From positions 96,001 to 160,000 of the forward strand of contig CAWDOD010000007.1 in the NCBI GenBank assembly GCA_963803805.1: DNA of 64,000 nt. Direction: 5' to 3'. Positions 6,686-39,551 of the stretch are shown piece by piece. The DNA is from an uncultured cyanobacterium. GTDB taxonomy: Bacteria > Cyanobacteriota > Cyanobacteriia > Cyanobacteriales > CAWCAG01. The notes under the pieces are model-generated. The model was not told the origin of the DNA, searched no databases, and saw only the letters and a list, made by a program, of their open reading frames with translations. Both the position numbers and the translations under genes were made by a program. The number at the start of each line of letters is the position of its first letter. Positions within the stretch are counted from its first letter, which is position 1.

Positions 6686-6715
6686 TGATGCCTAATGGCA
6701 ACGGCAAGCCAAACA
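6686..6715 (+). repeat. SDR5-like 24-nt insertion in TGAT^CA
   Basis: tgat[gcctaatggcaacggcaagccaaa]ca. Confidence 0.8.
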
Positions 6716-6723
6716 ACTAGCAA

Positions 6724-7236
6724 CTAGCCATTATTAACTATCAATTGTAATTTGTAAATATGATTAAACAATTGCCAATAATATTGTTCTGGTAAACCAC
6801 AAGTTACAGCCCCTCGCAATACCACGTTAGAATACCAATCATTAGGAGCAATTTCTGCTGTGAGCTTATCAACAACTACATAGGTACGCACGTTTTGATA
6901 AACAGCCTGTTTAGTTTCTACTGTCACCATTTCTTGACGATAGCCGTTGTTCGGAACTTCTTCCCGTTTATCAAGAAGATTACTTAAACGCCAAGGCAAA
7001 CGGTAAAGCACTCCTTCCACAGAAGAGTTAGGATCGCAAACTACATCCAAGACCCCACAATTGCGACGGACTGAACGGCGATAAAATCCTAAACGATAAC
7101 CTTTAAGGGTTGCAGTGCCAATAATGTAGTGATGAGTATTTTCTTGCAGCGATCGCTTTAAATCGACTGGACACATACAAGAGCCATAGGCAAAGTAATC
7201 AAAATAATTAGGGTCGGATTTTGCTAGAGACTGCAT
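6724..7236 (-). CDS. Gamma-glutamylcyclotransferase family protein
   Basis: YFAYGSCM, VEGVLYRL, LDKRE motifs. Confidence 0.85.
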   Translation of the reverse strand: MQSLAKSDPNYFDYFAYGSCMCPVDLKRSLQENTHHYIIGTATLKGYRLGFYRRSVRRNCGVLDVVCDPNSSVEGVLYRLPWRLSNLLDKREEVPNNGYRQEMVTVETKQAVYQNVRTYVVVDKLTAEIAPNDWYSNVVLRGAVTCGLPEQYYWQLFNHIYKLQLIVNNG

Positions 7237-7402
7237 AAAAAAGTCAAAAGTAGATTAATCTCAGACAGAAAGTCTTTTGTTAGCTTTAAGGACTTTCTAC
7301 CTACAATCAAGCTAGGATACCAACTCTTTTCTGACGAAGCCAAGGGTAAATGGTTATCGTTACAAAGTCTTTACAAAAAGAGTAATATTTACCTTAGATT
7401 TC

Positions 7403-8614
7403 TTATTCCTCAACCGGAAACGCCCCCGGACGTACTTTTATCGCTTTAACAACTCCTTGACGTTTTACCTTAACTTCTAAGAGTTTACCAATTTCGCTTA
7501 CTTCCACCTGGGTTTGGACTTCTGCTGCGGTTGTTACAGATTCTTGCCCCACTTCTTGAATTACATCTCCTTCTTGAAAACCAGCTTGAGCTGCTGGAGA
7601 TTTAGGAAGAACACGAACAATGAGAACACCTTTTTCTTCTTCTATTTGTAAATTGAGTTCTTTATCTTGATTAATTTCTGCTTTAACATCGGGATCTAAA
7701 GTAACCATTTGAATGCCTAAGTAAGGATGCTCAACTTGTCCTTTACGAAATAGCTCTTCAGCAATACGTCGGGCAGTTTCTATGGGAATCGCAAAACCTA
7801 AACCTTGGGCTTCTGCCCTAATCGCTGTATTGATACCAATCACCTCTCCTTTGGCATTGAGGGAGGGGCCACCGGAGTTACCAGGGTTAATAGCAGCATC
7901 AGTTTGAATAAAACTAACTCTTTTATGGGGAACTCCTACTTGGGCGCTAGAACGACCTAAAGCACTAACAATACCTACAGTAACTGTATTATCTAATCCT
8001 AAAGGATTGCCGATGGCGATCGCCCATTCTCCAGGAGTTAAATCTGTGGTTTGACCTAATTTAACAGTGGGTAAGTTTTTTTGATCGATCTTAACCACGG
8101 CTACATCAGTCATAGGATCACTACCAATTACCTTACCTTCATAGGTTTGACCATTTTTTAGGGTTACTTCAACCAAATCTGAACCTTCTACCACATGGGC
8201 ATTGGTGATAATACGGCCGTTACCACTAAGAATAAATCCTGATCCTGTACCCCTCTCCACCCTGGGGTGAGATTCAGGAAGTTCTTCTGCACCAAAGAAG
8301 CGTTTGAAGAAAGGATGTTCCAAGGGTTTGATGTTTTGAGAAGAAAAATTACGGGCAGAATCAATACGAACTACCGCAGGGCCAACTTTTTTCACCGCAT
8401 CGGCAATAAAGTTGACATTACTTTGAGACACTGGGGCCGGAGGGAGTGAGGTAGATTGCAAAGAGGCAGGTATAACAGCAGGAGATTGCTTATTTTGCTC
8501 ATCCTGGGCTATTAAATAGAAACTGCCTAAGAAACCTGTACCACTGCCAAAAGCTAACAAACCTAGATAAATAAATAGCTGCTTGAAGGACATATTCATG
8601 CTTTTCCAGAGCAA
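7403..8614 (-). CDS. HtrA/HhoA/HhoB family serine endopeptidase with PDZ domain
   Basis: GTGSGFI, TNAHVV, IQTDAAINPGNSGG, C-terminal PDZ, N-terminal hydrophobic anchor. Confidence 0.95.
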   Translation of the reverse strand: MLWKSMNMSFKQLFIYLGLLAFGSGTGFLGSFYLIAQDEQNKQSPAVIPASLQSTSLPPAPVSQSNVNFIADAVKKVGPAVVRIDSARNFSSQNIKPLEHPFFKRFFGAEELPESHPRVERGTGSGFILSGNGRIITNAHVVEGSDLVEVTLKNGQTYEGKVIGSDPMTDVAVVKIDQKNLPTVKLGQTTDLTPGEWAIAIGNPLGLDNTVTVGIVSALGRSSAQVGVPHKRVSFIQTDAAINPGNSGGPSLNAKGEVIGINTAIRAEAQGLGFAIPIETARRIAEELFRKGQVEHPYLGIQMVTLDPDVKAEINQDKELNLQIEEEKGVLIVRVLPKSPAAQAGFQEGDVIQEVGQESVTTAAEVQTQVEVSEIGKLLEVKVKRQGVVKAIKVRPGAFPVEE

Positions 8615-8803
8615 AAATGATCGTTAAAAGTAGTAGACAAAATAAAATTCAGACCAAAATCAAGCTGCATCCCAGAAAATGGGATTGAGTTTTACTATAT
8701 AACTACTAGCCTAATAATTGTGTTCAATTCTATACCCCCTTTCACCAAAATAGTAGGGGGCTTATTCCCTCACAACACCTTATTAATATACAGTTGTCGC
8801 AAA

Positions 8804-9763
8804 TTATGTTTGTAAAGTTCCTTTACCGAAGAATTTAGGGGGTTCTTTGAGACTATAAATCTGGGTTTGTTGGGCAACAGCAGCGCGAATATACATTGGA
8901 GTTTGGAGCATTCCTAATAGGGTTATACCATCAATTAAGCGCAATCCTCCCTTAGTTTTTTCTTTTAATAGTTGATCCACAGCTTCGGGATCAGGGCGAG
9001 TGGCTATTTCAGTTTCTGAACAAAGGGCAAAACCCCAAGGAGAGGCATAGGTAGGGACATGGGAAGCATAGGAATGTACATGGGGAAATACAGCTTGTAA
9101 AGTCTTTACTAACCGGGCATGGAGGGTTATTTCTGCTGGGGCAACTGGTCCTGCTTGAATTACGGCGTAGCCTCCGGGGTTTAAAACTTGTTTGATTTTA
9201 CTGAAGTATTCTTTGGTAAATAGTGGAAAAGAAGGTCCTTCTTCAATGGGATCAGAAAGATCAGAGATGATGATGTCCCATTTTTCTGCGGTATTATCAA
9301 GTACTTCTAACGCATCAGCAATTAACAATTCTACACGGGGATCATCTAAGGAGTTTTGGTGCATTTCCGGTAAATGTTCCTGGCAAGCTGCTACCACCTC
9401 CCCATCAATATCAATCATCAATACCCGTTCAATACTTTGCCAACGTAAAACCTCCCTTACCGTTGCCCCTTCTCCACCACCGAGGACAAGAACTTTTTTT
9501 GGTGATTCGTGGGCGATCGCAGCAGGATGTACCAAGGCTTCATGATAAAGAAATTCGTCTCCAGTACAAGACTGCCATTTACCGTCAAGAACTAAAGCTT
9601 TACCATAGGCTCCAGTTTCCACAATATACATTTCTTGATAGGCAGTTTTCTGATAGGCAAGAATTTTAGTAATACCATGTTCGTAAACATCCCAAGGTGT
9701 GATGTATTCTTTAATCCACAAATCCGCTTTAAGTTCGCTACCAGCCATATTTTCAATGCTCAC
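8804..9763 (-). CDS. speE: Spermidine synthase / polyamine aminopropyltransferase; likely start ATG 9748
   Basis: LVLDG, YHEALVH, VLVLGGGEG, IISDLSDP motifs. Confidence 0.9.
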   Translation of the reverse strand: MSIENMAGSELKADLWIKEYITPWDVYEHGITKILAYQKTAYQEMYIVETGAYGKALVLDGKWQSCTGDEFLYHEALVHPAAIAHESPKKVLVLGGGEGATVREVLRWQSIERVLMIDIDGEVVAACQEHLPEMHQNSLDDPRVELLIADALEVLDNTAEKWDIIISDLSDPIEEGPSFPLFTKEYFSKIKQVLNPGGYAVIQAGPVAPAEITLHARLVKTLQAVFPHVHSYASHVPTYASPWGFALCSETEIATRPDPEAVDQLLKEKTKGGLRLIDGITLLGMLQTPMYIRAAVAQQTQIYSLKEPPKFFGKGTLQT

Positions 9764-9770
9764 TTATCAA

Positions 9771-9837
9771 TGTACGGCTTGCCGTTGCCGTTAGGCATCA
9801 ATGATCAATGATGTCTTCGACAAGGGCAAGCCCTACA
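9771..9837. repeat. Two divergent SDR5-like insertions (24 and 23 nt) in TGAT^CA, flanking an empty TGATCA
   Basis: tg[tacggcttgccgttgccgttaggc]atca-a-tgatca-a-tgat[gtcttcgacaagggcaagcccta]ca. Confidence 0.85.
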
Positions 9838-9907
9838 GTTATTAATTTACAGTTTGTCCCTTGTTATGGGGGGTTAGTTTCTAGTTTTTAGTTTTTTTAG
9901 CTTTGAC

Positions 9908-10879
9908 TTAAATAATGGTGTGGCCTAATGCTAAACCGGTTACTAACATTCCTAAAACCAGAAAAGGTTGAGCGCTAGCTTGGTATTTCACATCGTTTTT
10001 GAGAGGATCGCGGAGGAAATACATATCTTGGAAGGTGATCTGGGGAATGATTAAAAGTATTAGTAATACTGCATAAAAATTTTGGTGTATGGCAACTAAA
10101 TAGCCAGCAATGCCGGCTTGGAATAAATCAATCATTAACACGCAAATCCAAGCTGCTGTACCAATGCCAAACATCACTGGTAAAGATTTTAAACCTAACT
10201 CTTCGTCTCCTTCTACACTCTTAAAATCATTCACCACCGCAATGCCCAATCCTGCGAGGCTATAAATTAGGGTGAGGATAGCAATTTTCCAGTTAAGTTC
10301 CCCAAATAAAGCATGACCGGCCCACCAAGGCAGGGCAATATAACTTGCACCTAAAGCATAGTTACCTAACCAGCCATTTTTTTTCAATTTTAAAGGTGGT
10401 GCCGAATAAATGTAGGCAAGGAATGCACCCCCAAGGGTTAAACAGGTTAGCACAGGGAAATCATGACCTGCCCAAATATCTAAACCAAAGGCTAAACCTA
10501 AACCAGCAACTAAGAGAATAACAATTTGGCTCATGACTTGAGGGACAGAAATTGCTCCTGAAGGAATGGGGCGATAAGGCTCATTAATAGCATCAATTTC
10601 TCTGTCATAAAAGTCATTTAAGGTTTGGGTATAACCTGTCATTAATGGCCCTGAGAGCAACATACAAGCAGCCGCTTTGAGAATATCTTCTAATGTCCAA
10701 CTATAGCCCCCAGAAGAAGCTGCACCGCAGACTACACCCCAGATTAAAGGAATCCAGGTAATTGGTTTCATCAACTGTAAGCGGATTTTCCAAATGGAAC
10801 TTTCCCCCGGTGCAGCACCTTTCATCCCTAACATTTGGCGGGTTTTGGCACTGCGATCGCTGCTACTTTCCGTTGTCAT
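9908..10879 (-). CDS. chlG: Chlorophyll synthase
   Basis: IRLQLMKPITWIPLIWG, NDFYDREIDAINEPYRPIPSG, NDVKYQASAQPF. Confidence 0.97.
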   Translation of the reverse strand: MTTESSSDRSAKTRQMLGMKGAAPGESSIWKIRLQLMKPITWIPLIWGVVCGAASSGGYSWTLEDILKAAACMLLSGPLMTGYTQTLNDFYDREIDAINEPYRPIPSGAISVPQVMSQIVILLVAGLGLAFGLDIWAGHDFPVLTCLTLGGAFLAYIYSAPPLKLKKNGWLGNYALGASYIALPWWAGHALFGELNWKIAILTLIYSLAGLGIAVVNDFKSVEGDEELGLKSLPVMFGIGTAAWICVLMIDLFQAGIAGYLVAIHQNFYAVLLILLIIPQITFQDMYFLRDPLKNDVKYQASAQPFLVLGMLVTGLALGHTII

Positions 10880-10948
10880 TACTTAATTCTTCCTTGGCAA
10901 ATCTCATCTAAGATTTTACCTTAGATGTAAAATTGCTATGTTTTAGTC

Positions 10949-12637
10949 TCAATTATTCTCTAGGTTTAAAGAATCTAGCAAAATCAAAGGTAAAGCTTCT
11001 TTACTAATACTTAAACCATAACTGGAAGTTAAATAATCTTGGTACTCAGGCAACTGAGCAATGTAAGTACTGAAGAAAGCCAAGCTTAATGCTTTAACAT
11101 ACTCTTGAGCTATTTTCGGGTCAGGACCAACAGCTTCCGAAGGTATAGGAATGCTACCTTGTTCTTCGGCGATGGTTGAAAAGTGAGTGCCTCCTTTTAA
11201 AAGAGCTAAATATTTCTGGGGAGATGTTAACCAAGTAAAAGGCCTAATTTGCTCAATTAAAACTGGAGTAACTGTATCATCGCTACTACCCCAAATCATA
11301 ATTGGTTGCTCAATTTTACCTATTTCACTTTCTCCGAAAATAGTACTATCTAGAGGATTGATGGCTATTACTGCGGCAATACGGTCATCTTTCAACTCGT
11401 AATCAGCATTTCCTAAGTAAATAGCTTGACACTGAAGCAATAAAGAGAGATTAAGGAAGTTAGCATCGCTCTCTGGTTGACAATCTGTTTGGACTTGTTC
11501 ACTGTTGATGCCTGCACCAGCTAAAGCCAAGCTGGTGTAAGCGCCGTAGGATTGTCCTAAAATCCCGACTCGTTCAACATTAATTTTGTTGCTGTAGGAT
11601 TGTGCTAAAACATCTAATAAATATTTAATATCTAAGGGTCGGTCAATTAATTCTTGGGGGGGAGAAACTTCATTAGCTAGCCCAGCTAACAAAGCACCAA
11701 CTTGAGCAGAATTACTACCAGGATGTTCTAATACAGCTACAGCAAAGCCGTGGGATGCTAAATGAAGGGCAACATATTGAAAGGATTTAAGATTAGAACC
11801 AAGTCCGTGGGAGATGACAACTAAAGGAGAAGTCACGCCCTCCCCATTTTGGGGTAAATATAAATCAACAGGAAAGCTTCTTAGGCGCTGATCATCTTGG
11901 AGATTTAACCTTTCTACGGTAAATTTAGTTGCCCCAGAAGCTCTTAATTCTAGTAAGTTTGGTAGGTTGGTAATGGGATTATTAAAAGCTGCTTCGGTGG
12001 CTTGAACTTCAATATCGGTTACAGCTTGTTGAGTAAGCCTAATGGTACTACTTAGTTGATCGATAATTTGAAAACCGCTTCGGGAATTGATGCGTATCCC
12101 CACGGTGGGAAATTTCTTTAAGACATTTAAAGGGGTTAGCCCCTCTTCATCAGCAGCCGCTAAAATCAAAGCAGAACGCAAAGCATAAAAACCCGATTGG
12201 CGGGCTTGGGTTTGAATCACTTCCCCAAGCCGTTGTAGAATAGTTTCTCCTTGGGGGGTATAGAAAAATTGGGCTACAGCTACCGCATCTAAGTCAGCAC
12301 GAGTTAGTAAGATTTCTCTGAGTTGAGTTAACTGTTCTTCATTCAAATAACCTGCATAGTTAGTTAATTCTTGCTCAATTTTCCCTTCCCTAGCGTAGGT
12401 TTCCAAAGCTTCTACGGAGATAGAGAAATCCAAAATACCATAGGAAACATAAAGATGTTCTGCACTTAGAGCGCGATCAGCAAGTAAGTTGGGAGTCGTT
12501 AGCAAAAAGCCTATATTAAACAGGGCAATTCCCCATTTAGTCCAAGCTCGAGAAGTGAACTTTGGTAAGGCTATGTTTGGCTGAGTTAGCTTAGAGTTCT
12601 GGGGCGAAGGAGCAAGTTTAGCGATCAAAAAATTCAT
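10949..12637 (-). CDS. Alpha/beta hydrolase with N-terminal DUF1400-like domain
   Basis: VISHGLGS, EHPGS, GQSYGA nucleophile elbow, GGTHFS. Confidence 0.85.
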   Translation of the reverse strand: MNFLIAKLAPSPQNSKLTQPNIALPKFTSRAWTKWGIALFNIGFLLTTPNLLADRALSAEHLYVSYGILDFSISVEALETYAREGKIEQELTNYAGYLNEEQLTQLREILLTRADLDAVAVAQFFYTPQGETILQRLGEVIQTQARQSGFYALRSALILAAADEEGLTPLNVLKKFPTVGIRINSRSGFQIIDQLSSTIRLTQQAVTDIEVQATEAAFNNPITNLPNLLELRASGATKFTVERLNLQDDQRLRSFPVDLYLPQNGEGVTSPLVVISHGLGSNLKSFQYVALHLASHGFAVAVLEHPGSNSAQVGALLAGLANEVSPPQELIDRPLDIKYLLDVLAQSYSNKINVERVGILGQSYGAYTSLALAGAGINSEQVQTDCQPESDANFLNLSLLLQCQAIYLGNADYELKDDRIAAVIAINPLDSTIFGESEIGKIEQPIMIWGSSDDTVTPVLIEQIRPFTWLTSPQKYLALLKGGTHFSTIAEEQGSIPIPSEAVGPDPKIAQEYVKALSLAFFSTYIAQLPEYQDYLTSSYGLSISKEALPLILLDSLNLENN

Positions 12638-12741
12638 AAGGTGATTTGTGCTGTCAAATATAGATTACTTGGTAAGAACTACAAACTTTCCTATTTCTCT
12701 GCCCTGCTTAACAATTAGATTAACACCAATTCAATTGTCAT

Positions 12742-12790
12742 GGCATTCATCCCACCCTGAATTAAAATTATAGACGTGGGGATGAATGCC
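12742..12790. repeat. Long inverted repeat (REP/IS-end-like hairpin) between divergent genes
   Basis: ggcattcatcccac ... gtggggatgaatgcc pair almost perfectly. Confidence 0.7.
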
Positions 12791-12832
12791 TAGCTAGCTA
12801 AAATATAAAACGTTCAACACTGAATCATTTGT

Positions 12833-12866
12833 CCCTAACGGCAACAGCAAAGCCGTACATTGATCA
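12833..12866 (+). repeat. SDR5-like element with degenerate left flank, next to an empty TGATCA
   Basis: ccctaacggcaacagcaaagccgta-ca-t-tgatca. Confidence 0.7.
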
Positions 12867-12888
12867 CTGAATAACTGAATAACTAAAT

Positions 12889-14133
12889 ATGTTGCCTGTT
12901 AAAGAAGCCGAAGCTATTATTTTAAAATTATTTCAACCCCTAGATCCCCAACAAGATTTTGAGATTGTGGGTTTAAAAGAAGGGAGGGGACGTATTTTAG
13001 CTGAACCTGTCACTAGTAAGCTGGATTTTCCCCATTGGGATAACTCGGCTATGGATGGTTATGGGGTAAGGTTTGCTGATGTGGAAGATTGTTCTCCAGA
13101 CAAGCCAGTTAGTTTGTCAATTGTGGAAGAGATTCCGGCGGGTTACCAACCCCAGAGATCAGTACAGTCAGGGCAAGCAGCGCGGATCTTTACTGGTGCG
13201 GTGATGCCAGAGGGAGCAGATACAATTGTGATGCAGGAGAATACCCAGCGTGAGGGTAATGTCGTTAAAATTTTGGCTTCTCCCCAAGCAGGAGAATTTG
13301 TGCGCCGCCGTGGGGATTTTTACCAAGCAGGCAAGCCTTTATTGAATCCAGGAACTCGCCTCAATGCCCCAGAAATTGCAGTCTTAGCGGCGGCACAATG
13401 TAACCAGTTTAAAGTTTATCGCCGTTTGCGGGTTGCTATTTTTGCGACAGGGAATGAATTGATTAGTCCTGTAGAAACTTTGCAACCAGGACAAATTGTT
13501 GATTCTAATCAATATGCTTTAGCTGCATTTGTGGCTGACAATGGTTGCACTCCCATACCCATGGGCATTGTTAAGGATAAACCAGAACTATTAAAAAAGG
13601 CGATCGCCCTTGCCCTTGCTAGTGCAGATGTGGTGCTTTCTACTGGGGGGGTATCCGTGGGAGATTATGATTTAGTTGACCAAATTTTACAGGAGTTGGG
13701 GGGCAAAATTCATTTGCGTAAGGTGAAAATAAAACCGGGCAAACCCTTGACAGTGGCGACATTTAATGTAGATAGATCAGGGCAAGCATCTTTATATTTT
13801 GGCATTCCTGGCAACCCGGTTTCTGCTTTGGTAAGTTGCTGGCGTTTTGTGCAGCCAGTATTACAGAAAATGTCTGGGTTAAAAGATTGGCAACCAACTT
13901 TTATTAAAGCGCGAACTCAAAGTAAATTACGTTCTGGTGGTCAAAGAGAAACCTATCTTTGGGGAACAATGAAGGTTGTTAATGGGGCTTGGGAGTTTTG
14001 CCTCGCCCCAGGAACACATAACTCTGCTAATTTGGTGAATCTAGCTGGTACTACAGCCCTTGCGGTTGTACCTTTAGGAACAAAAACTATTGAACCAGGG
14101 GAAGAAGTAGAAGTTTTAATCAATGATGCCTAG
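12889..14133 (+). CDS. moeA: Molybdopterin molybdotransferase (gephyrin-like)
   Basis: SAMDGY, RIFTGA, TGNEL, STGGVSVG, KPGKP, GIPGNPVS. Confidence 0.95.
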   Translation: MLPVKEAEAIILKLFQPLDPQQDFEIVGLKEGRGRILAEPVTSKLDFPHWDNSAMDGYGVRFADVEDCSPDKPVSLSIVEEIPAGYQPQRSVQSGQAARIFTGAVMPEGADTIVMQENTQREGNVVKILASPQAGEFVRRRGDFYQAGKPLLNPGTRLNAPEIAVLAAAQCNQFKVYRRLRVAIFATGNELISPVETLQPGQIVDSNQYALAAFVADNGCTPIPMGIVKDKPELLKKAIALALASADVVLSTGGVSVGDYDLVDQILQELGGKIHLRKVKIKPGKPLTVATFNVDRSGQASLYFGIPGNPVSALVSCWRFVQPVLQKMSGLKDWQPTFIKARTQSKLRSGGQRETYLWGTMKVVNGAWEFCLAPGTHNSANLVNLAGTTALAVVPLGTKTIEPGEEVEVLINDA

Positions 14134-14153
14134 GGGCAAGGGCAAGCCCTACA
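14124..14153 (+). repeat. SDR5-like 24-nt insertion in TGAT^CA that supplies the moeA stop codon
   Basis: tgat[gcctaggggcaagggcaagcccta]ca. Confidence 0.8.
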
Positions 14154-14179
14154 AAGATTCAACTAGCCATTAGCCATTA

Positions 14180-15960
<1,781 letters not shown>

Positions 15961-16070
15961 TTTACAGTTTTAGGAGAAAGGTTAAGGGTCAAAGGCAATG
16001 AGAACAGTATATTCAAAACTTATTACTTATTTACTTATTACTTTTCCCCTACTCCCTGCTCCCTGCTCAA

Positions 16071-16934
16071 TTAAACCATCATCAAGTCTAGTTCTTCTTC
16101 TGAGGTTTTTTGAGGTTGAGCATCGTTGAGATAGAAATCTGATAGGAGGGTAAATAAGTCACGATCTTGGGATTCGTTGGGTACTACACCTTCGGGTAAA
16201 GCTAAAACTTGGTCAGCAATATTAAGGTAGTAGTCGCAGACGTAACTTAAGGAAGGATCAGTTTCTGCCATTTCAAATAGAGTCTTACCCTTAACGCGAG
16301 AAACGCGGATATCTTCAATTAAAGGTAGGATTTCTAACACTGGCATTGGTACTGATTCGATGTATTTGTCGATTAAGTCACGCTTGGAGGTACGGTTGCC
16401 AATTAAACCTGCTAAGCGGAGGGGGTGGGTGCGGGCTTTTTCTCTTACCGAGGCAGCGATACGATTAGCAGCGAATAAAGCATCAAAACCATTGTCGGTG
16501 ACAATCATGCAATAGTCAGAGTAGTTTAAAGGTGCAGCAAAACCACCACAAACTACGTCACCTAAGACATCAAAGAGGATGACATCATACTCATCAAAAG
16601 CATTGAGTTCTTTAAGGAGTTTAACGGTTTCCCCAACTACATAACCACCACAACCTGCACCAGCCGGGGGACCTCCTGCTTCTACACAATCCACTCCGCC
16701 ATAACCTTTATAAATGACATCTTCTGGCCAAATATCTTCGTAATGGAAATCTTTTTCTTGTAAGGTGTCGATGATAGTAGGAATAAGGAAGCCTGTCAGA
16801 GTAAAAGTGCTGTCATGCTTAGGGTCACAACCAATTTGCAAGACTTTTTTACCTCTTTTAGCTAAAGCAACAGAGATATTACAGCTTGTTGTAGATTTAC
16901 CGATTCCACCCTTTCCATAAACTGACAGTTTCAT
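16071..16934 (-). CDS. chlL: Light-independent protochlorophyllide reductase Fe-S ATP-binding subunit L
   Basis: [36 protein letters not shown]. Confidence 0.97.
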
Positions 16935-17666: not shown

Positions 17667-17772
17667 GTCGCCCGTTGTCTAATAAAAAAAATGTGTTATC
17701 TTAATTGAAGGGAAAGAGAAATCCCAGTCATTTTGAAACTAAAACCGTTCAGGTAGAAAGGAGGTGATGCCC

Positions 17773-17844: not shown

Positions 17845-17939
17845 AGAACCCAGCTTAACTCGTTTTATCTTAAAGCGCTGGAGAGCTGAACTTTATAGTT
17901 CCTTCCGGCAGCCAGATACTAACTAGAAGACCCGCTACA

Positions 17940-18172: not shown

Positions 18173-18183
18173 TTTTTTTGAAT

Positions 18184-18209
18184 TGTACGGCTTTGCCGTT
18201 GTCGTAGAC
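18184..18209 (-). repeat. SDR5-like 24-nt element with one degenerate flank
   Basis: Minus strand reads gtctacgacaacggcaaagccgta-ca. Confidence 0.7.
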
Positions 18210-18223
18210 TAAATTTGGATAAA

Positions 18224-30779: not shown

Positions 30780-31152
30780 GAATAGCAAGTCGCACCAAGA
30801 GACTATAATAAGCGCAGTCCAGTTCTTTTGCAAACTAGTAAAAAGAGGATGCGATCGCAGGGTAATCGAACTTACCTTCTTATTCGATTTCATTAGTCGG
30901 AAAAATCTCAAACTTGGAGAGTAAAAATTTTAATCTATTCTTTAATCTTTCATCTTTTCTTGAACTAATATTAAGTACTTATTGACAAAACACAGTCTTT
31001 CAAGCTCCACAAGCAGCTCATTTTTGTAGTATAAATATTGTTTCTTGTTGTTAAATTGGCTACAAAAAGTCAATTTTGTATAACATGATGCAAAGATTTC
31101 GTTAAATCCAGGTTAAAATCATTTACATTAAGACAAACTTCGGTTAGAAAAA

Positions 31153-32463
31153 TTGCAGACACTAACTTCGCAAGTTAAGCAAACAGATTTTCCTGCCAGT
31201 ATCTTCCACTTAGATAATGGTTTAACAATTATTCATCAGCACATCGCCGCAACCCCTGTGGTAGTAGCAGATGTTTGGGTAAAGGCTGGGGCGATGAGAG
31301 AACCCCAGGAATGGTCAGGAATGGCTCATTTCCTAGAGCATATGGTCTTCAAAGGGACAAAACGTGTTGCTCCGGGAATATTTGACCAAGTAATTGAAAG
31401 TCGCGGTGGCACTACAAACGCTGCAACAGGTCATGACTACGCCCATTTCTATTTAACCACAGCATCTACTTACCTAGCTGATACATTACCTCACTTAGGG
31501 GAAATTCTTCTTCAAGCAGAAATTGCCGAGGTCGAATTTATTCGGGAACGAGAGGTGGTAATAGAAGAAATGTACTCTTGTTACGATGATCCAGATTGGT
31601 TGGGTTTCCAAGCTTTATGCAACACCCTTTACCAATGCCATCCCTACGGACGTTCTATTTTAGGGGAAGAAGAACAGTTAAAAGGTTATACCCCAAACCA
31701 AATGCGCTGTTTCCATGCTTCCCACTATCAACCGGAGAATATAACAGTCTCCATTGTGGGGGGAGTCTGCCAAGAAGAAGCTTTATCTTTAGCTACAGAA
31801 GCTTTTAGCAACTTTAAACCCCGTTCAGAATGTCCTCCCTCCTTAGTAGAAGCAGAACCCCCCTTAACAGGAAATCGCCGTAGAGAACTGCATTTACCTC
31901 GCTTAGAACAAGCAAGGTTGTTAATGGGCTGGATGGGACCAGGAGTAGGGGAAACGATTGGTAGCTTAATAGATATTAAGTCTAAATCTCCCCTTAAAGA
32001 TGCTTACGGTTTAGACCTTTTGGCTGCTATCTTAGCTAGCGGTCGTTCCTCAAGATTAGTACGGGAGTTGCGGGAAGAAAAACGCCTCATCCAAGATATT
32101 AGCTGTGATTTTTCTCTCCAGCAAGATTCCAGCCTCTTCACCATCAGCGCTTGGCTAGATCCAGAAAATTTAGAAGAAGTAGAAACTATTATCTGCGATC
32201 GCTTGCACCAACTGCAAATAACTCCTGTTCAACCAGAAGAATTAAATCGCAGCAAGCGCCTACTATGCAATGATTTTGCCTTTTCCACGGAAACCCCAAG
32301 TCAATTAGCGGGTTTATACGGTTACTACAACACTGTAGCCACAGCCGAGTTAGCCCTGATCTATCCCTTTGGTATCCAAAAAACAACTGAGTTAGATTTA
32401 CTACGTATCGCCAATCAATATCTTTCACCAGAACGATATGCAGTTACAGTAGTAAATAATTGA
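31153..32463 (+). CDS. M16 (pitrilysin) family metallopeptidase, catalytic subunit
   Basis: GMAHFLEHMVFKG (HXXEH), HPYGRSILG. Confidence 0.92.
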   Translation: MQTLTSQVKQTDFPASIFHLDNGLTIIHQHIAATPVVVADVWVKAGAMREPQEWSGMAHFLEHMVFKGTKRVAPGIFDQVIESRGGTTNAATGHDYAHFYLTTASTYLADTLPHLGEILLQAEIAEVEFIREREVVIEEMYSCYDDPDWLGFQALCNTLYQCHPYGRSILGEEEQLKGYTPNQMRCFHASHYQPENITVSIVGGVCQEEALSLATEAFSNFKPRSECPPSLVEAEPPLTGNRRRELHLPRLEQARLLMGWMGPGVGETIGSLIDIKSKSPLKDAYGLDLLAAILASGRSSRLVRELREEKRLIQDISCDFSLQQDSSLFTISAWLDPENLEEVETIICDRLHQLQITPVQPEELNRSKRLLCNDFAFSTETPSQLAGLYGYYNTVATAELALIYPFGIQKTTELDLLRIANQYLSPERYAVTVVNN

Positions 32464-32481
32464 TAAAATTAATAATTGATC

Positions 32482-33741
32482 ATGGCCGTGGAGCAAACTC
32501 AGAAAATTCATAGTAAAGTTTTAGCTAACGGTATCAAAATACTATTTGTCGAAAACCCTGCTGCGGATATTATTTCTGGCCGTATTTTTTTTAAAGATGC
32601 TGGCATGAGGGAGATGTCCCGCGAAAAGGCAGGGCTAACTCATTTATTGGCCTCTGTCATCACCAAAGGAACTCAGGGGTTATCCTCAGCCCAAATAGCT
32701 GAACGTATTGAATCTGTGGGGGCAAGTTTGGGCGCAGATGCAGCAGCAGATTACTTTTTAATCAGTCTTAAAACTGTTTCTCAAGACTTCCAGAATATTT
32801 TTCAACTCGCCGGGGAAATTCTGCGCTCACCAACTTTTCCTCAAGAAGAGTTTGAATTAGAACAACATTTAACGATACAAGACATTCGTTCCCAGCAAGA
32901 GCAACCTTTCAATGTCGCTTATAATCAACTACGGCAGTTGATGTATAAACAACATCCCTATGGAGTTTCTATCTTAGGTACACAAGAAACTGTTTCTAAA
33001 TTAACGCGCCAAGACTTGCAGGAATTTCACAAAACTTATTTCCACCCCAGTAAAATGGTAGTGAGTATTTCCGGTCGCTTGAAGCCGGAAGGGGCTTTCA
33101 AATTAGTGCAAGAAACCTTTGGAGATTGGCAACCTCCCTCAATTTCTGTTTCCAAGCAAGAAACCCCTAATATTAATTCCCAGCCAGAAGTTGGAACCAT
33201 AATCCAAGATACCCAACAAAGTATTGTTATCTTAGGCTATCTAGCTTCATCAGTTTATCAACCTGACTTTTTTGCCCTCAAACTTCTCAACACCTATTTA
33301 GGTAATGGTTTGTCAAGTCGTTTATTTGTAGAACTGCGAGAGAAGCGAGGCTTAGCCTATGATGTCTCTTCTTTCTATCCTACCAGAGTTGATAACTCTC
33401 AATTTGTAGTTTATATAGGAACAGCACCAGAAAATACGGAAATTGCCTTAACTGGCTTGCGCCAAGAAACAGAACGTTTATGCAACATTGAGTTAACACC
33501 AGAAGAATTACAAACAGCTAAAAATAAGCTTCTAGGTCAATATGCGTTAGGGAAACAAACCAACTCAGAAATAGCTCAAATTTATGGTTGGTATGAAACC
33601 CTCGATTTAGGAGTAGATTTTGATGTTCAGTTTCAAGAAGAAGTTTCTAGAGTAACACCTCAAGAAGCTCAAGAAGCTGCTTGTCGCTATTTCGGTGAAC
33701 CCTATGTATCTATAGTGGGGCCAGTGGGTGATCAGCAATAA
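32482..33741 (+). CDS. M16 family peptidase, non-catalytic partner subunit
   Basis: Degenerate HLLAS motif, HPYG, SSRLFVELREKRGLAY. Confidence 0.9.
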   Translation: MAVEQTQKIHSKVLANGIKILFVENPAADIISGRIFFKDAGMREMSREKAGLTHLLASVITKGTQGLSSAQIAERIESVGASLGADAAADYFLISLKTVSQDFQNIFQLAGEILRSPTFPQEEFELEQHLTIQDIRSQQEQPFNVAYNQLRQLMYKQHPYGVSILGTQETVSKLTRQDLQEFHKTYFHPSKMVVSISGRLKPEGAFKLVQETFGDWQPPSISVSKQETPNINSQPEVGTIIQDTQQSIVILGYLASSVYQPDFFALKLLNTYLGNGLSSRLFVELREKRGLAYDVSSFYPTRVDNSQFVVYIGTAPENTEIALTGLRQETERLCNIELTPEELQTAKNKLLGQYALGKQTNSEIAQIYGWYETLDLGVDFDVQFQEEVSRVTPQEAQEAACRYFGEPYVSIVGPVGDQQ

Positions 33742-33834
33742 TCGCTAATAACAGCTTATAACTACTTAAGCAAAATTAGAGTCAAGGGAACAGGGAAGGA
33801 ATTGATACCTTTGCCCTCTTCCCCTGTAACCTGA

Positions 33835-34152
33835 TTAGGTAGTTGCTTTTTGACTAACCCCCCCAGTAGATTTAGTTTGGGCAAATTTAGGAACCATCTC
33901 TTCTTCTTCTAAGGGTGCAAACTCAATATGATTGAGTAAGGTTGTCACAAAAGCAAAGACGAGGAAGGGTAGAGATAATACCAAAACAATTCCGACAGTG
34001 GCTAAGGCAAATATTTGGCGAGTGCTACTCCACAGGGCAAGAGTTGTTGCTAGGCTAATGAAAATGACGATTAACCAGACAATTATTTGTCCATAAACGT
34101 CGCCGAAGCTTAAGGTGCAGATCAAGCGGTACTTAGGAAATTCGTTGTCCAT
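33835..34152 (-). CDS. Small hypothetical membrane protein
   Basis: 105-aa ORF with CTLSFGDVYGQIIVWL and two TM segments. Confidence 0.75.
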   Translation of the reverse strand: MDNEFPKYRLICTLSFGDVYGQIIVWLIVIFISLATTLALWSSTRQIFALATVGIVLVLSLPFLVFAFVTTLLNHIEFAPLEEEEMVPKFAQTKSTGGVSQKATT

Positions 34153-34261
34153 AGCTTAATTACTTAACTTTCTCTCTAATTTTGACACTAAGTTATTGAA
34201 GAGGTTTCTTGAGAATATCTAAAGGTTTTTTCAAAAAGTTGCTATGACATGACCAAAAAAA

Positions 34262-34348
34262 CGGAGAGGGAGGGATTCGAACCCTCGACACCCTTGCAGG
34301 TGTAGCAGTTTTCGAGACTGCCGCATTCAACCGCTCTGCCACCTCTCC
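34262..34348 (-). tRNA. trnS: tRNA-Ser(CGA)
   Basis: Minus strand reads GGAGAGGTGGCAGAGCGGTTGAATGCGGCAGTCT-CGA-AAACTGC...GGTTCGAATCCCTCCCTCTCCG; long variable arm; CCA not encoded. Confidence 0.97.
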
Positions 34349-34387
34349 AAAGATGTTAGGTTATTAATATATTACCTTGTCTTTCAA

Positions 34388-36691
34388 CTATAATCCTGAA
34401 GCATCGGCATCAACAATATCTAAATTGCTTTGAAATCCATCTTCAGGTATCCATTGAACAGCACCGTTGCGACTTGTCCAATATAACTGAGTTTGTTTTT
34501 TCTTTAGTTCTTCGGTGATTTCCGCTTCCAAAGTACTGGCAGAGGCGATCGCTACTTTAGGTTTTAAAAAACTTAGCCAGGTTTTTCTAAAACTGTCCCC
34601 ATTCCAGATGATCACTTGGGGGGCAGATTCTGGGGTAGAGGTAAGTTTTTGTAAGTACTGATTGATGGCTTCAATTTGAGTATTGAGTTTACTTTGTCCG
34701 AAAATTAACCATGTCTGGTTACGGATCTTGAGTTGCAAGGCGGGGGGATCGGCACTAATTAATTGCATTACTACTGAGGCAACCGCCGTAGGTTGTTTGA
34801 GGGGGAGAGGTTGTGAGGATGTTGAGGAGAGGTTTTTGGTGGCAGCTTCGGTATAAAAGAAGTTTTGGATTGGCATCTGGGCAAATATTTCTTGCCAACC
34901 GCTAGTTAAATCTGGTTGAAATTCTAAAGCAACTGCCCAATCTATTTTATTTATGCCTTCTTGTTGCAGAAAGGGTATGACTGTAAATAAAGCTGTATTA
35001 TCATTGCCGCTATTAATGAGGGTGACTTTACCTTGATCTTGAATTACTAAAACCTGCTCTTCATCTGCTGCTAAGACGGTAACTTGGAATAAGCCTACTT
35101 GTTTTTGGACTATGGGGATGGTGATAATCAAAGCTGCAAATAAGGCCGCTAGCCACCAACGACGCTGAAGCCATTTGCTATAAAAGACGAAAATGATCAC
35201 ACCGTAAAGTAGTAGTACAGAAGCTAAGGAAATGCTCCCTACTGCACGGGTACTTCCTGGTAAGTTGGTGAAAAACTCTACTATGGCAATGAGGAAGTGG
35301 ATTGGGTAATAAAGTAGGGAGGCAGCATAGGTTCCGGCAGTAGGTACAATTAAAGCAATTAAGGCGCTTATCATGCCCCCCAAACTAACTAAGGCAACTA
35401 TTGGGGCAGTAATAATATTAACGGCGATACTATAGGTGGCAACAATGTTGAAGTAATAAAGTTGCAGGGGTAAAACCCAGGGGAAAATTGCCAGGGGAAC
35501 AGTGATGATTGAAGCGATGGTTGGGGGTAGCCAATCTAGCTTTTTCAGGAGGGGAGGGAGGGTGACAATTAAACCCAAGGTAGCTAGGAAGCTTAATTGG
35601 AAACCAATATCAACAATCCAAGTTGGTTGCCATAACAACAGGAATATAGCAGCTAATAATAAGGAACCTAATTGTCTGACTTTTCTTTGGGTTAATAGGG
35701 CGATTAAAGCCCCAATACCCATGATAAAAGCCCGCATTACCGAGGGCTGACATCCCGTCAAACCGACGTAAATAAATAAGGTGGCTAGGGCAATGATAAA
35801 TCGTGTTCGCACCTTGAAAGGGTGAGTTAAACCTAAAACCACCCCCAAGATTAAGGAGACATGGAAGCCAGAAGCAGCTAAGACATGGGCTAATCCGGCT
35901 TTGATAAACAAGTCACTAATATCTTTGGGTAAATCAATTGCCCGTCTCCCCAAAACAATGGAACTAAGTAATAAACCTTCCGGGCTACCTAATGAAGCTA
36001 CTTGCGATTTATTAATACGTTGGCGTAATTGCCACAAACCCCAATTCTTTTCTTGGTTTACTTCCGGGAAAATAACCTGCTTACCATTAAAACCAGCGAA
36101 TATACCTTGACGGGCTAAGTAAGCTTGAAAATCAAATGCCCCTGGATTTAAAGGAGGTTGAGGGGTGTATAAAGTTCCAGTTATGTATAAAATTTGCTGG
36201 GGATGTATCCCCGTACCTTGGAGTAAAGGAACTGTTACATACAATTTCCCTTCTACCCCTCGATTCACTGCCTTCTTACCTTCCTTGCCCTCTACTTCAT
36301 TAACCCTTTGGGCAGCTAATAAAAACTGCGATCGCTGACTGCGAGTAGTACGAGGGGAGGTTAAGACTCTGCCTTGCACTGTAACCAACTGTTCTTTTTG
36401 GGGAACTAATTTGCTAACATCATTATTTGCTGGTTGCGGGATTCTCAGTTGTAAATAAATCACAGCAACAGCCGCAATTAAACCGGCCACAAGCCAAACC
36501 CCTTTTTTGGGGCCAGTTTTCCAAACTTTGGGTACAAGGGCTGTCATGACAATACCTAGTACCACAAACCCTAAACCTGCACCTCCTACAGTTAACCAAG
36601 AGTTAAACTGAGGAGCAAAGTTGATAGCTGCACTGATGAGGAGTCCAGTTATGTAAGCAAGGCAAATAATGGTAGTGCTTTTACGATTCAT
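34388..36691 (-). CDS. comEC: ComEC/Rec2 competence protein
   Basis: NPGAFDFQAYL, GLAHVLAASGFHV, PSVMRA, GFQLSFLAT; start placed at ATG 36691. Confidence 0.93.
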   Translation of the reverse strand: MNRKSTTIICLAYITGLLISAAINFAPQFNSWLTVGGAGLGFVVLGIVMTALVPKVWKTGPKKGVWLVAGLIAAVAVIYLQLRIPQPANNDVSKLVPQKEQLVTVQGRVLTSPRTTRSQRSQFLLAAQRVNEVEGKEGKKAVNRGVEGKLYVTVPLLQGTGIHPQQILYITGTLYTPQPPLNPGAFDFQAYLARQGIFAGFNGKQVIFPEVNQEKNWGLWQLRQRINKSQVASLGSPEGLLLSSIVLGRRAIDLPKDISDLFIKAGLAHVLAASGFHVSLILGVVLGLTHPFKVRTRFIIALATLFIYVGLTGCQPSVMRAFIMGIGALIALLTQRKVRQLGSLLLAAIFLLLWQPTWIVDIGFQLSFLATLGLIVTLPPLLKKLDWLPPTIASIITVPLAIFPWVLPLQLYYFNIVATYSIAVNIITAPIVALVSLGGMISALIALIVPTAGTYAASLLYYPIHFLIAIVEFFTNLPGSTRAVGSISLASVLLLYGVIIFVFYSKWLQRRWWLAALFAALIITIPIVQKQVGLFQVTVLAADEEQVLVIQDQGKVTLINSGNDNTALFTVIPFLQQEGINKIDWAVALEFQPDLTSGWQEIFAQMPIQNFFYTEAATKNLSSTSSQPLPLKQPTAVASVVMQLISADPPALQLKIRNQTWLIFGQSKLNTQIEAINQYLQKLTSTPESAPQVIIWNGDSFRKTWLSFLKPKVAIASASTLEAEITEELKKKQTQLYWTSRNGAVQWIPEDGFQSNLDIVDADASGL

Positions 36692-36706
36692 TTCATCAAT
36701 GATCAA

Positions 36707-36773
36707 TGTACAGCTTGCTGTTGCCGTTAGGCATCAGTTTTTAATGATGTCTTCGGCAAGGGTAAACCATACA
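36707..36773. repeat. Two divergent SDR5-like insertions (24 and 23 nt) in TGAT^CA
   Basis: tg[tacagcttgctgttgccgttaggc]atca...tgat[gtcttcggcaagggtaaaccata]ca. Confidence 0.85.
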
Positions 36774-36782
36774 GTGTAAGGC

Positions 36783-36977
36783 TTGCTGTTAACAATTAGT
36801 GGTCAAATTTCACCTGTTATCTTTTACCAAGATCACCCTTTTCCCCTCCCTTCATTAATTTTTATCACCGCTTTTGGAGTAATGGGTTTAAGCTTACCTA
36901 AGTTTGGTCGAGTCAGCAAAATTCTTTATACAACAGTTGAATTTACACTAATTATTCTGGCAGGAAATTGCAGATGA
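36783..36977 (+). pseudogene. Probable fragment of the membrane N-terminus of a NarL-partner sensor histidine kinase
   Basis: FGVMGLSLP...KILYTTVEFTLI resembles, from memory, N-termini of cyanobacterial sensor kinases; no kinase core follows. Confidence 0.45.
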
Positions 36978-37126
36978 TTATGTTTCTCAAGCTTTGAAGT
37001 TAGGAGTGAGGGGCTATTTTCTCTAAAGATACTCCTTCTAAGGGATTAGCGATCGCCATTCGTTCTATTCAAAAACGAAAGGAAGCTGACCAAACCTGGA
37101 GAATCAACCTCCCCGCCACCCCAAAA

Positions 37127-37924
37127 TCAATAGGGCTTCTGACCTAAAAAATTACCAGGGGGATTGTAGTTGCAGACCCAAACTTCTCGACCATTACTCC
37201 TCGCCATAGCACAACCTACTTCCGTTGTTTTTGACCAAACAACTTGGGTATAGTGACCACAGACTTTACCAGAGGCGCAACTATTGGTGGCATAGTCATA
37301 ATCTTTAATTTCTTCTCCCCACATTTGTACTACTCTTTCAGGAGAGAGTTGCTGTCCCCAAGCAGAAGCAAGGTTTTCTCCGTAGGGAGAGTTGAAGCGA
37401 TGTTCTAAGTTATCTTGTTTAATTAGTTTATTGGCCCAAGCTTGGGCATAACCCGCTAGTTCATCAGACCAACTTAAAGGAGCAACGCCGTGATTTTGTC
37501 GCCATTGGTTGTGGGCATCTAACATTTGTTCAATACCTGCTGAAGAGGAAAGATCGTAGACATTGGTAGCAATACCTTCTGCTTGAGCTTCTTCTAAAGA
37601 TTTGATGCGATCTAATGTAACTCCTTGTTCTGTAATGCCGCTATCTAAATAGGCAACGGTATACTTCCAACCTCCTCTGGTATTGTACCCATAACCCATT
37701 AACCGGGCTTCTTGCCAACTACCATTTTGTAAGACATAGACAGGCTTGCCATCAAGGGGATAGGGGGGTTGTTGGGCAAGTAACATGGGCTTTGATGTGG
37801 CAGGATTTTGATTAGAGTTTCGTTGTGGCGCTCGCCCTTGGGCGGATAAATTATTGTTAAAGAGAGTAGCAACAAAGGCGATGGTGGCGATGGTAATTTG
37901 GGAGAATTGTTTTTTTGTCAGCAT
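37127..37924 (-). CDS. Secreted CAP/SCP (PR-1-like) domain protein
   Basis: MLDAHNQWR, GENLA, CGHYTQVVW, VWVCNYNPPGNF; signal peptide. Confidence 0.92.
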   Translation of the reverse strand: MLTKKQFSQITIATIAFVATLFNNNLSAQGRAPQRNSNQNPATSKPMLLAQQPPYPLDGKPVYVLQNGSWQEARLMGYGYNTRGGWKYTVAYLDSGITEQGVTLDRIKSLEEAQAEGIATNVYDLSSSAGIEQMLDAHNQWRQNHGVAPLSWSDELAGYAQAWANKLIKQDNLEHRFNSPYGENLASAWGQQLSPERVVQMWGEEIKDYDYATNSCASGKVCGHYTQVVWSKTTEVGCAMARSNGREVWVCNYNPPGNFLGQKPY

Positions 37925-38042
37925 CTAGGATTCTTTAGTAATAATTTTTCCCTATTCAGTACAGATTAAATTTTAGGAACCTAGGTTCCTAAAATTTTTC
38001 TTATTGCTACTTTGTGGTTTTCTATAGAGTTTATTACTCCTT

Positions 38043-38162
38043 TATTAGTCGTATAGTAATAGTCCTTAACTTCTTCTCCCCACATTTGTACCACTCTTTC
38101 CAGGGAGATTTGCTGCCCCAAAACTGAAGCGAGATTTTCTCCGTAGGGAGAGTCAAAGCGAT
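38043..38162 (-). pseudogene. Diverged partial duplicate of the CAP domain
   Basis: About 20 mismatches in ~120 nt versus 37282-37401; RFDSPYGENLASVLGQQISLERVVQMWGEEVKDYYYTTN. Confidence 0.8.
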
Positions 38163-38398
38163 AAAGAGTAAGCAATGCTGCTGCTTAACTTAAAGCTACC
38201 AACTTTGTCGAAATACCTTAACTCCCTTAGCTACAGAAGTTTGCAGATTATAAATTGCTATGAGTATGGCACAATAAGATACGTTAATTAAATATCACTT
38301 GTAACGAAATTTCATTAAATAACGAGCTTTCTAATCACTCACAACCTGGAAAGCCTAGCTTAAATTTTGTTTTTTGATGGGATAATACTATAACTAAT

Positions 38399-39481
38399 AT
38401 GACTGTAACTGCTCCAGCACCGCCAAAAACTCGTCGCGTCGTCTTCCCTTTCACAGCTATTGTTGGCCAAGAAGAAATGAAATTGGCTTTGTTATTGAAT
38501 GTGATTGACCCTAAAATTGGTGGGGTAATGATCATGGGCGATCGCGGCACAGGTAAATCCACTACCATTCGAGCCTTAGCAGATCTTTTACCAGAAATTG
38601 AGGTAGTAGCAGGAGATCCTTTTGGTAGTGACCCTCAAGATCCCGAATTAATGAGTGACCAAGTTAGGGAACAGGTAGAAAAACAACTTCCCTTAACCAC
38701 CGAAAGGAAGAAAGTGCAAATGATTGACCTTCCTTTAGGTGCTACCGAAGATTGAGTTTGCGGCACTATTGATATTGAAAAAGCTCTTTCAGAAGGGGTC
38801 AAAGCTTTTGAACCAGGACTTTTAGCTAAAGCAAATCGAGGTATACTTTATGTTGATGAAGTTAACCTCCTTGATGACCACTTAGTTGATGTACTTTTAG
38901 ACTCAGCCGCTAGTGGTTGGAATACCGTAGAAAGAGAAGGTATTTCGATTCGTCACCCAGCACGTTTTGTTCTGGTCGGTTCAGGCAACCCGGAAGAAGG
39001 AGAATTGCGTCCTCAATTACTTGATCGTTTTGGGATGCACGCCGAGATTCGTACAGTTAAAGAACCAGCCTTACGGGTACAAATTGTTGAACAAAGAGCA
39101 GAATTTGACCAAAACCCCCAAGAGTTTCTTATAAAATATCAAAATGACCAAGAAGAATTACAAACTAAACTAGTCCAAGCTAGGGAAAGTTTATCGCAAG
39201 TAGAAATGGACTACGAAATGCGAGTAAATATTTCCGAAGTTTGTTCAGAGTTAGATGTAGATGGACTACGAGGAGATATTGTTACCAACCGGGCAGCAAA
39301 AGCCCTCACCGCATATGAAGGACGTAAGCAAGTAACCGTTGACGATATTCGTAGAGTTATGACCCTTTGTCTACGCCATCGCTTACGTAAAGATCCCCTA
39401 GAATCTATTGATTCGGGTTATAAAGTACAGAAGGCCTTGAGTAGAGTCTTTGGTTTAGCTGAAGAATCAATAGATCAATGA
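38399..39481 (+). pseudogene. chlI: Magnesium chelatase subunit I with one in-frame TGA at 38753-38755 (real lesion or sequencing error)
   Basis: [62 protein letters not shown], all in one frame. Confidence 0.9.
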
Positions 39482-39521
39482 TTAATGATCAATGGAGTTC
39501 TTGGTTTAGCTGGAGAATCAA

Positions 39522-39551
39522 TGATGCCTAACAGCAACGACAAGCTGAACA
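39522..39551 (+). repeat. SDR5-like 24-nt insertion in TGAT^CA
   Basis: tgat[gcctaacagcaacgacaagctgaa]ca. Confidence 0.8.

Follow-up and report, generated by a model that had tools for sequence, protein, structure and literature searches.

The window analysed here, a stretch of 64,000 nt from an uncultured filamentous cyanobacterium (GenBank assembly GCA_963803805.1, contig CAWDOD010000007.1, positions 96,001 to 160,000; G000:C7:96001-160000 in our labelling), contains nine related sequences, most of them only 23-24 nt in length, and raises the question of what such minute elements are and how they come to lie where they do. On balance we think it probable, though only narrowly so, that they are non-autonomous micro-repeats of the kind known as small dispersed repeats (SDRs), which fall into three subtypes of 23-24 nt and have been gained and lost at one phase of heptamer arrays since the host and its sister species separated. 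The source genome (G000) comprises 5.31 Mb in 11 contigs at 40% G+C, and contains 2646 HIP1 (GCGATCGC) sites and 1317 TGATCA sites. Its GTDB family holds three species in the GTDB set used: G000, a sister species of the same genus (G001), whose genes are 79-93% identical to those of G000 in the window regions compared, and a member of another genus (G002). The gene hetR was found in all three.

The first-pass annotation of the window had listed nine elements, and all nine can be read in the sequence, the single correction being that the fourth, given as ~12833-12857, spans 12831-12857. Site 1 (6690-6713, plus strand) is a 24-nt type A element located between two minus-strand open reading frames (ORFs). 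Sites 2 and 3 are arranged head-to-head 16 nt apart: site 2 (9773-9796, minus strand) matches the type A consensus of the family exactly, site 3 (9813-9835, plus strand) is a 23-nt type B element, and the heptamer tract between them (9797-9812) consists of two CAATGAT units with an empty TGATCA at 9802. At 27 nt, site 4 (plus strand) is a diverged copy; it has the additional A seen in subtype C, lies between TTT and CA and is followed by an empty TGATCA at 12861. Site 5 (14128-14151, plus strand) is a variant of type A in which both arms of the stem have G/C changes, whereas site 6 (18186-18209, minus strand) is the exact subtype C consensus, flanked by TTTA and CA. The head-to-head arrangement at 16 nt recurs with sites 7 (36709-36732, minus strand; type A with 2 mismatches) and 8 (36749-36771, plus strand; the GGGTAAACC form of type B), and what is probably a degenerate A-like remnant (36777-36799, minus strand) lies tail-to-tail with site 8 across the 5-nt spacer CAGTG. 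Site 9 (39526-39549, plus strand; type A with 4 mismatches) lies in a heptamer tract, and the TGATCA upstream of it at 39486 is empty. Seven of the nine are inserted between TGAT and CA, so that deletion restores TGATCA with no part of the flank duplicated, as had been proposed; both exceptions, sites 4 and 6, resemble subtype C. The empty TGATCA sites reported beside filled ones are present at all four coordinates (9802, 12861, 36700 and 39486), and we agree that no mobilising enzyme is encoded in the window. A 414-aa ORF (12889-14133), the G001 orthologue of which ends otherwise, takes its final codon and TAG stop from the first nucleotides of site 5 (14128-14133). Logan contigs of one DNA run, possibly the source sample, span site 1 unaltered and contain no informative joints; this one DNA run, and no RNA run, is listed among the sequencing runs holding the element.

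Scans of the complete G000 genome demonstrate that the dispersed family of related 23-24 nt elements lacking target duplication is real. Allowing up to 4 mismatches, and with lists for B and C that partly overlap, there are 54 copies of subtype A (24 nt; consensus as at site 2), 21 of subtype B (23 nt; as at site 3) and 14 of subtype C (24 nt; as at site 6), and a loose union of all element matches amounts to 102 copies. Simple arithmetic gives a chance expectation of ~0.04 type A copies in 5.3 Mb. A dinucleotide-preserving shuffle of the genome was adopted as the null model, since the element core reads identically backwards, and seeded alignments scoring at least 14 numbered 72 in G000 versus 2 in the shuffle. 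Furthermore, a 30-mer that includes the flanks occurs 42 times with up to 3 mismatches, versus no occurrence of the backwards control. TGAT precedes 73 of the 102 copies and CA follows 78, with both present, and hence an exact TGATCA restored, in 61; position by position, the flanks of the 54 type A copies read T51 G47 A53 T52 / C47 A50. For subtype C, the 5' flank ends in TTTA or CTTA in 10 of 14 copies, with CA on the 3' side in 13. No recurrent insert of 20-28 nt was found in G000 between the GCGAT and CGC of HIP1 (the top count being 3). Copies inside ORFs are rare (3/102), orientation relative to flanking genes is unbiased (26:26), and the tandem, divergent and convergent spacers that hold copies (52, 25 and 18, respectively) reproduce the background shares of 0.56, 0.27 and 0.17. 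Orientation, spacer class and ORF counts therefore give no sign of a transcription-linked role. The elements match no Rfam family, and between positions 5000 and 41000 of the window only a tRNA matched that database.

The surroundings of the elements are themselves repetitive. When the flanks of each of the 102 copies are joined, identity at a lag of seven nucleotides averages 0.55, compared to 0.18-0.25 at lags of 5, 6, 8 and 9, indicating that the elements sit in heptamer arrays, namely of TCAWTGA, TCAGTTA and ATCAATT. Tandem TCAWTGA yields a TGATCA at each unit junction. If a lag-7 identity of at least 0.6 is taken as array-like, 46 of the 102 elements qualify, versus 42 of 315 empty TGATCA sites outside long ORFs. 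Copies always lie on the same side relative to their own orientation, and there is no target duplication. Their position is specific to one phase of TCAWTGA-type heptamer arrays, and not to the TGATCA palindrome alone. The point of insertion lies off-centre in the GATC core, matching that of SDR5 in HIP1 as the later literature describes it. Eleven pairs of elements in G000 are less than 60 nt apart, nine of which are inverted, and eight of these nine have spacings that fit 7k-2 (tail-to-tail; 5, 5, 5, 12 and 19 nt) or 7k+2 (head-to-head; 16, 16 and 23 nt), as expected if elements enter in phase at an off-centre point of a palindromic array junction. The 16 nt between sites 2 and 3 is one such 7k+2 spacing, as predicted for two in-phase insertions of opposite orientation.

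Evidence on movement comes from orthologous sites in the sister species. At site 1, exactly 24 nt are absent from G001, leaving TTAT/CA, and the right flank, CAACTAG, is a different heptamer that is identical in the filled and empty alleles. At site 2, G001 carries an identical copy (24/24), whereas site 3 is missing along with the pair of CAATGAT heptamers on its 5' side, which makes a 37-nt gap. Site 6 lies inside a ~230-nt stretch missing from G001, the orthologous spacer of site 9 has two other diverged SDR-like pieces, and sites 4, 5, 7 and 8 fall at synteny breaks where the comparison is uninformative. In the opposite direction, 40 regions around G001 copies and earlier G001 loci gave 49 distinct A-type sites, of which 16 had no syntenic flank pair in G000. 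Among the 33 syntenic sites, 24 are without an SDR in G000 and 9 have an SDR-like copy, one of them type B and another inverted. At one locus (L030) 24 nt are absent from G000, leaving TGAT/CA with 33/40 ungapped identity across the junction; at a second (L036) 24 nt are absent, leaving TAAT/CA; and at a third (L001) a composite of B, 8 nt and A, 55 nt in total, is absent, leaving TTAT/CA. From G000 to G001, the copies at site 2 and L079 are shared; four comparisons added to those of the window sites yielded one shared diverged copy and three uninterpretable arrays. Some orthologous copies are identical in both species though their flanks differ (site 2, L031 and L047), and the two genomes keep an identical consensus and the same GTA and GAA variants. 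Since exact presence or absence leaves T(G/T/A)AT/CA, the TGAT and CA belong to the flank and not to the element, in agreement with the earlier description. Spontaneous exact deletion seems unlikely, because the element ends share no microhomology. Since G000 and G001 diverged, turnover in the family has been high, and the combination of exact ends, no microhomology, and turnover with retention of the consensus and its variants argues for a mobile, non-autonomous micro-element. A search for paralogous empty sites within G000 returned only self-matches and two local or contig-end duplicates, both of which are filled. Separately, 3 of the 6 synteny breaks between G000 and G001 in the 23 kb compared fall in spacers with SDRs or heptamer arrays (12711-12888, 14114-14188 and 36698-37118), and a 15-kb stretch of the window maps to at least six separate places in G001; the coincidence may be due to chance, as breaks must fall in spacers.

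The family is restricted to one genus. G001 contains 50 A-type and 9 B-type matches and G002 none. An order-wide scan of 401 genomes, representing 38 families and 142 genera, returned more than one match only for G000 (22) and G001 (31); two of the other 399 genomes have one match each and none has more. Whether a pattern specifying 19 bases or a looser one is used, other species give single chance matches only. Public genome contigs (genome_contigs) contributed 7 single matches in unrelated metagenome-assembled genomes, public metagenome contigs (metagenome_contigs) one exact 24-mer lacking the TGAT/CA flanks, and PLSDB plasmids no match to the element. The metagenome match (L086:401-424) is the GAA form of type A, located in an apparently coding stretch of an unrelated contig, and the core of the matched 24-mer is a low-complexity hexamer repeat. 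TCAWTGA arrays are equally restricted to the genus, with 60, 89 and 1 per-strand matches in G000, G001 and G002, respectively.

Approximately 20 of the 102 copies are in doublets, and all but one of the 11 close pairs combine subtypes A and B. In four of its five occurrences, the GGGTAAACC variant of B has an inverted A-like copy 5 nt after it, and the arrangement seen at 36749-36799, a B variant, 5 nt and an inverted A, recurs at three other loci. Head-to-head doublets are predicted to fold strongly (z -3.9 to -6.7), as illustrated by the long hairpin of sites 2 and 3 (-19.5 kcal/mol, z -6.7) and that of sites 7 and 8 (-14 kcal/mol, z -4.5), whereas tail-to-tail doublets separated by 5 nt show no significant structure (z -0.5 to -1.7).

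Two Y1-transposase genes were found in G000. One encodes a RAYT of 183 aa (G000:C10:342765-343133; L067:1357-1908, minus strand) that matches NF047646 with 186 bits against a cut-off of 80, and the other an IS200-type TnpA (G000:C6:170761-171105). Weak RAYT-type Y1 matches are found in G000 and G001, with none listed for G002, which is free of the element. The RAYT gene is followed by repeat units that start with GTAGGGTGTGTTAG and contain long inverted repeats, often in tandem runs; the motif has 54 copies in G000 with up to 1 mismatch, and this is probably the REPIN-like family that belongs to the RAYT. The flanks of the IS200-type tnpA are unrelated to SDRs, and the searches turned up neither a cognate full-length element nor any TnpA with ends that match. 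A unit of ~210 nt is present in tandem directly beside this solitary tnpA (L064:1860-2290, on G000:C6).

If the elements are indeed non-autonomous SDR-type repeats, each copy would have been placed between the opening T of a TCAWTGA-type unit and the CA that follows it (TGAT^CA), on the same side according to its own orientation, by a trans-acting and orientation-aware reaction that joins the element 3' of the flank tetranucleotide. Such a reaction would be formally akin to the strand-specific insertion, free of duplication, carried out by single-strand HUH (Y1) transposases such as those of IS200/IS605 and the RAYTs; alternatively, it might take an RNA route, as is said to have been proposed for SDRs. 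Several observations weigh against this reading. Clean boundaries were obtained in only four comparisons with an absent copy (site 1, L030, L036 and L001), the rest being blurred by heptamer changes, and a comparison of G000 with G001 that has no outgroup does not separate insertion from excision. The fold predicted for single elements is weak (-2.5 to -5 kcal/mol, z -0.1 to -1.6), with two alternative stems of 4-5 bp and modest covariation, as the 4-5 doubly changed cells give a score that is reached by 25/500 and 5/500 shuffles. G000 copies show no orientation bias relative to GC skew, and no SDR lies within ~1.5 kb of any of 10 Y1-transposase loci examined in the three genomes, the RAYT gene being flanked by the GTAGGGTGTGTTAG repeat instead. 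Flank conservation extends beyond TGATCA, to -6 and to +4 to +9 (of the 54 type A copies, 50 have A at -6 and 48 have T at +4). Element variants correlate with the type of flanking heptamer, the GAA variant having A at -5 in 35 of 36 copies. The 5' half of subtype C is that of B and its stem that of A, yet its flank, TTTA/CA, is its own and contains no GATC. Finally, several filled alleles have heptamers beside the element that are of a different type from, or more numerous than, those in the empty allele, and flanks may therefore have been transferred along with the element.

These same features determine what can be said of the target. The first-pass annotation had the elements specific for the TGATCA palindrome; given the array phase specificity, the A at -5 of the GAA variant, the GATC-free flank of subtype C and the altered heptamers near filled sites, we do not consider targeting of the palindrome as such to be shown, and with flanks conserved so far out and so few of the empty sites array-like (42/315), it is the phase of the heptamer array that we put in its place. 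Of the suggestion that a GAT^C cut is kept, the asymmetric point in the GATC core stands, and the flank of subtype C does not conform; a dependence on GATC methylation is weakened by the same flank. A guide sequence within the element that chooses a subtype-specific flank was also considered, and such a simple model is unsupported, because subtype C has its own flank despite a B-like 5' half and an A-like stem.

The serious rival, rather unlikely in our judgement, requires no dedicated enzyme: elements would be copied from one dispersed heptamer array to another through homology, by ectopic gene conversion or break repair, and the TGAT...CA flanks would be inherited from a founder. This would account for flanks conserved over one to two heptamers on each side, for the lag-7 identity of 0.55, and for arrays that are as genus-restricted as the elements, although copies that have hardly any array on at least one side are common, 56 of the 102 having a lag-7 identity below 0.6. 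It would also explain why filled alleles have the consensus CAATGAT where empty alleles have CAGTTAT, CAGTAAT or fewer units, with two extra units at site 3, one at L051 and L021, and differing neighbouring units at L036 and L030; such arrays, however, change fast on their own, and differences in units need not mean co-transfer. The tracking of flanks by variants, seen in the -5 A of GAA copies and in the pairing of TTTA with CAATTATCAATT in subtype C, is consistent with copying, as are the orthologous site with A in G001 and B in G000 and the other copy that is inverted, while the maintenance of the same consensus and variants in both species suggests a constraint on sequence. Conversion as the sole mechanism is opposed by site 1, whose right flank has just CA in common with other copies and is the same in both alleles, so that homology able to drive it is lacking there.

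Two further explanations were considered. That the elements are REP-like, with inverted A/B doublets as REPIN-like units mobilised by the RAYT of the genome, is very unlikely in our estimation, even though a bona fide RAYT is encoded, close pairs nearly always combine A with B (10/11) and are mostly inverted (9/11), and head-to-head doublets fold strongly. The reverse complement of B plus its flank starts with GTAGGG, like the repeat beside the RAYT, and GTAG is the conserved 5' end of REP sequences; nevertheless, the RAYT is flanked by the GTAGGGTGTGTTAG family and the nearest SDR is 24 kb away. The weak hairpins of single elements and the unstructured 5-nt tail-to-tail doublets are also at odds with this explanation, the doublet of sites 2 and 3 is a singlet in G001 and so the doublet is not the sole unit of change, and the co-occurrence of RAYT-type matches with the elements comes from a sample of three genomes, which is far too small. 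Scarcely credible, in turn, is an immobile, selected cis-acting signal, such as an operator, terminator or small RNA motif, recurring in spacers. Shared copies that are identical despite differing flanks (site 2, L031 and L047) would suit such a signal, as would a partial look-alike at G000:C10:374741-374775. The latter corresponds to the 3' two-thirds of type A, lacks the TGAT/CA flanks and, with a T-run after it in its convergent spacer, is reminiscent of an intrinsic terminator; it may be a relic, a source or chance. However, at orthologous positions 24 of the 33 copies are missing, orientation (26:26) and spacer class show no preference, Rfam gives no match, single-element hairpins are weak and without T-runs, and one copy overlaps and ends an ORF.

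How, then, does the family relate to systems already described? In 2008 Elhai and colleagues reportedly distinguished, in Nostoc punctiforme and its relatives, eight SDR families of 21-27 nt, often in tandem heptamer repeats, with SDR5 solely within HIP1 and with RNA intermediates as a proposed route; SDR4-6 are said to share a hairpin supported by compensatory changes. The elements described here resemble these in length (23 nt for B, 24 nt for A and C), in being dispersed and mostly intergenic (3/102 in ORFs), in lying in heptamer arrays without target duplication, in having a short predicted hairpin, and in their exact presence or absence between relatives, at four loci exact to the nucleotide. 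They probably differ in sequence from SDR1-8, judging indirectly by the pattern scans of other species. In one article (PMC5861425), SDR5 is placed in HIP1 and no SDR is reported outside the heterocystous Nostocaceae; the host here belongs to a three-species GTDB family and not to the large Nostocaceae. A later paper describes the SDR5 insertion point as asymmetric within the GATC-containing palindrome of HIP1, a likeness to our elements, and another (PMC13756078) gives SDR5 as 21 nt and of unknown function. Unlike SDR5, the present elements are flanked by TGAT/CA (TTTA/CA for C) and not by HIP1. We have what looks like a new, genus-restricted family of the known SDR kind, outside GTDB's large Nostocaceae. 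The kind itself is not new, because SDRs embedded in heptamer repeats have reportedly been described before. Of the earlier interpretation as a whole, the real, dispersed family without duplication is retained, TGATCA targeting is unsupported, and the link to GATC methylation is weakened.

SDRs have been named as a possible REPIN-like case, according to Bertels and Rainey 2011 (PMC3116915). With REP/REPIN-RAYT systems the elements have in common that they are short, extragenic and high-copy, that inverted doublets form long hairpins, and that the genome contains a RAYT. In contrast, they do not flank the RAYT, which another repeat does; their unit is a weak 23-24 nt hairpin; the doublets pair two subtypes; and position is fixed within heptamer arrays. 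Members of IS200/IS605 insert strand-specifically 3' of a fixed tetranucleotide, with no duplication, no terminal inverted repeats and an internal hairpin. The present elements are likewise orientation-specific and directly 3' of a fixed tetranucleotide, and lack duplication and terminal inverted repeats, but are at least 10 times smaller, have one short stem instead of separate left-end and right-end hairpins, and have a 3' flank, CA, that is conserved too. The resemblance is a formal analogy and does not imply membership. STRR-type heptamer tandem repeats occur in filamentous cyanobacteria, and the flanking TCAWTGA, TCAGTTA and ATCAATT tracts are similarly short tandem heptamer arrays in spacers; here the arrays are the context and not the element, and their units are AT-rich and genus-restricted. 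A literature search, thin on subscription papers, located no description of a family specific for TGATCA or for a heptamer phase.

Other repeats in G000 were also encountered. A repeat end, AAGC TGATGTGCATTTAAAC, followed by ~80 nt of similar sequence, occurs at 33 places (e.g. C2:78036 and C2:439404); it looks like a miniature inverted-repeat transposable element or the end of an insertion sequence and is unrelated to the SDRs. In addition, 12 identical copies of at least 120 nt (e.g. C2:205022 and C3:164478) presumably represent an active insertion sequence.

A broader idea is that SDR5 in HIP1 and the TGAT/CA family are products of a single undiscovered reaction that inserts hairpin DNA of ~21-24 nt without duplication at one and the same asymmetric bond, GAT^C, of a GATC core within short palindromes. 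We regard this as distinctly unlikely; if true, it would amount to a new site-specific micro-transposition in cyanobacteria, in which methylation or repair at GATC or CGATCG might play a part. More generally, SDR-type elements are among the smallest mobile DNAs proposed, and their movement has been an open question since 2008. The genus described here offers a compact system for that question, with three subtypes that have defined junctions, a sister species in which copies are mostly not shared, many empty in-phase sites, and, in G000, only two Y1-transposase genes as candidates. The family also calls for caution with similar finds, as heptamer arrays can give rise to the appearance of palindrome targeting. 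For the organism itself, the elements alter spacers near start codons, and one copy supplies a stop codon.

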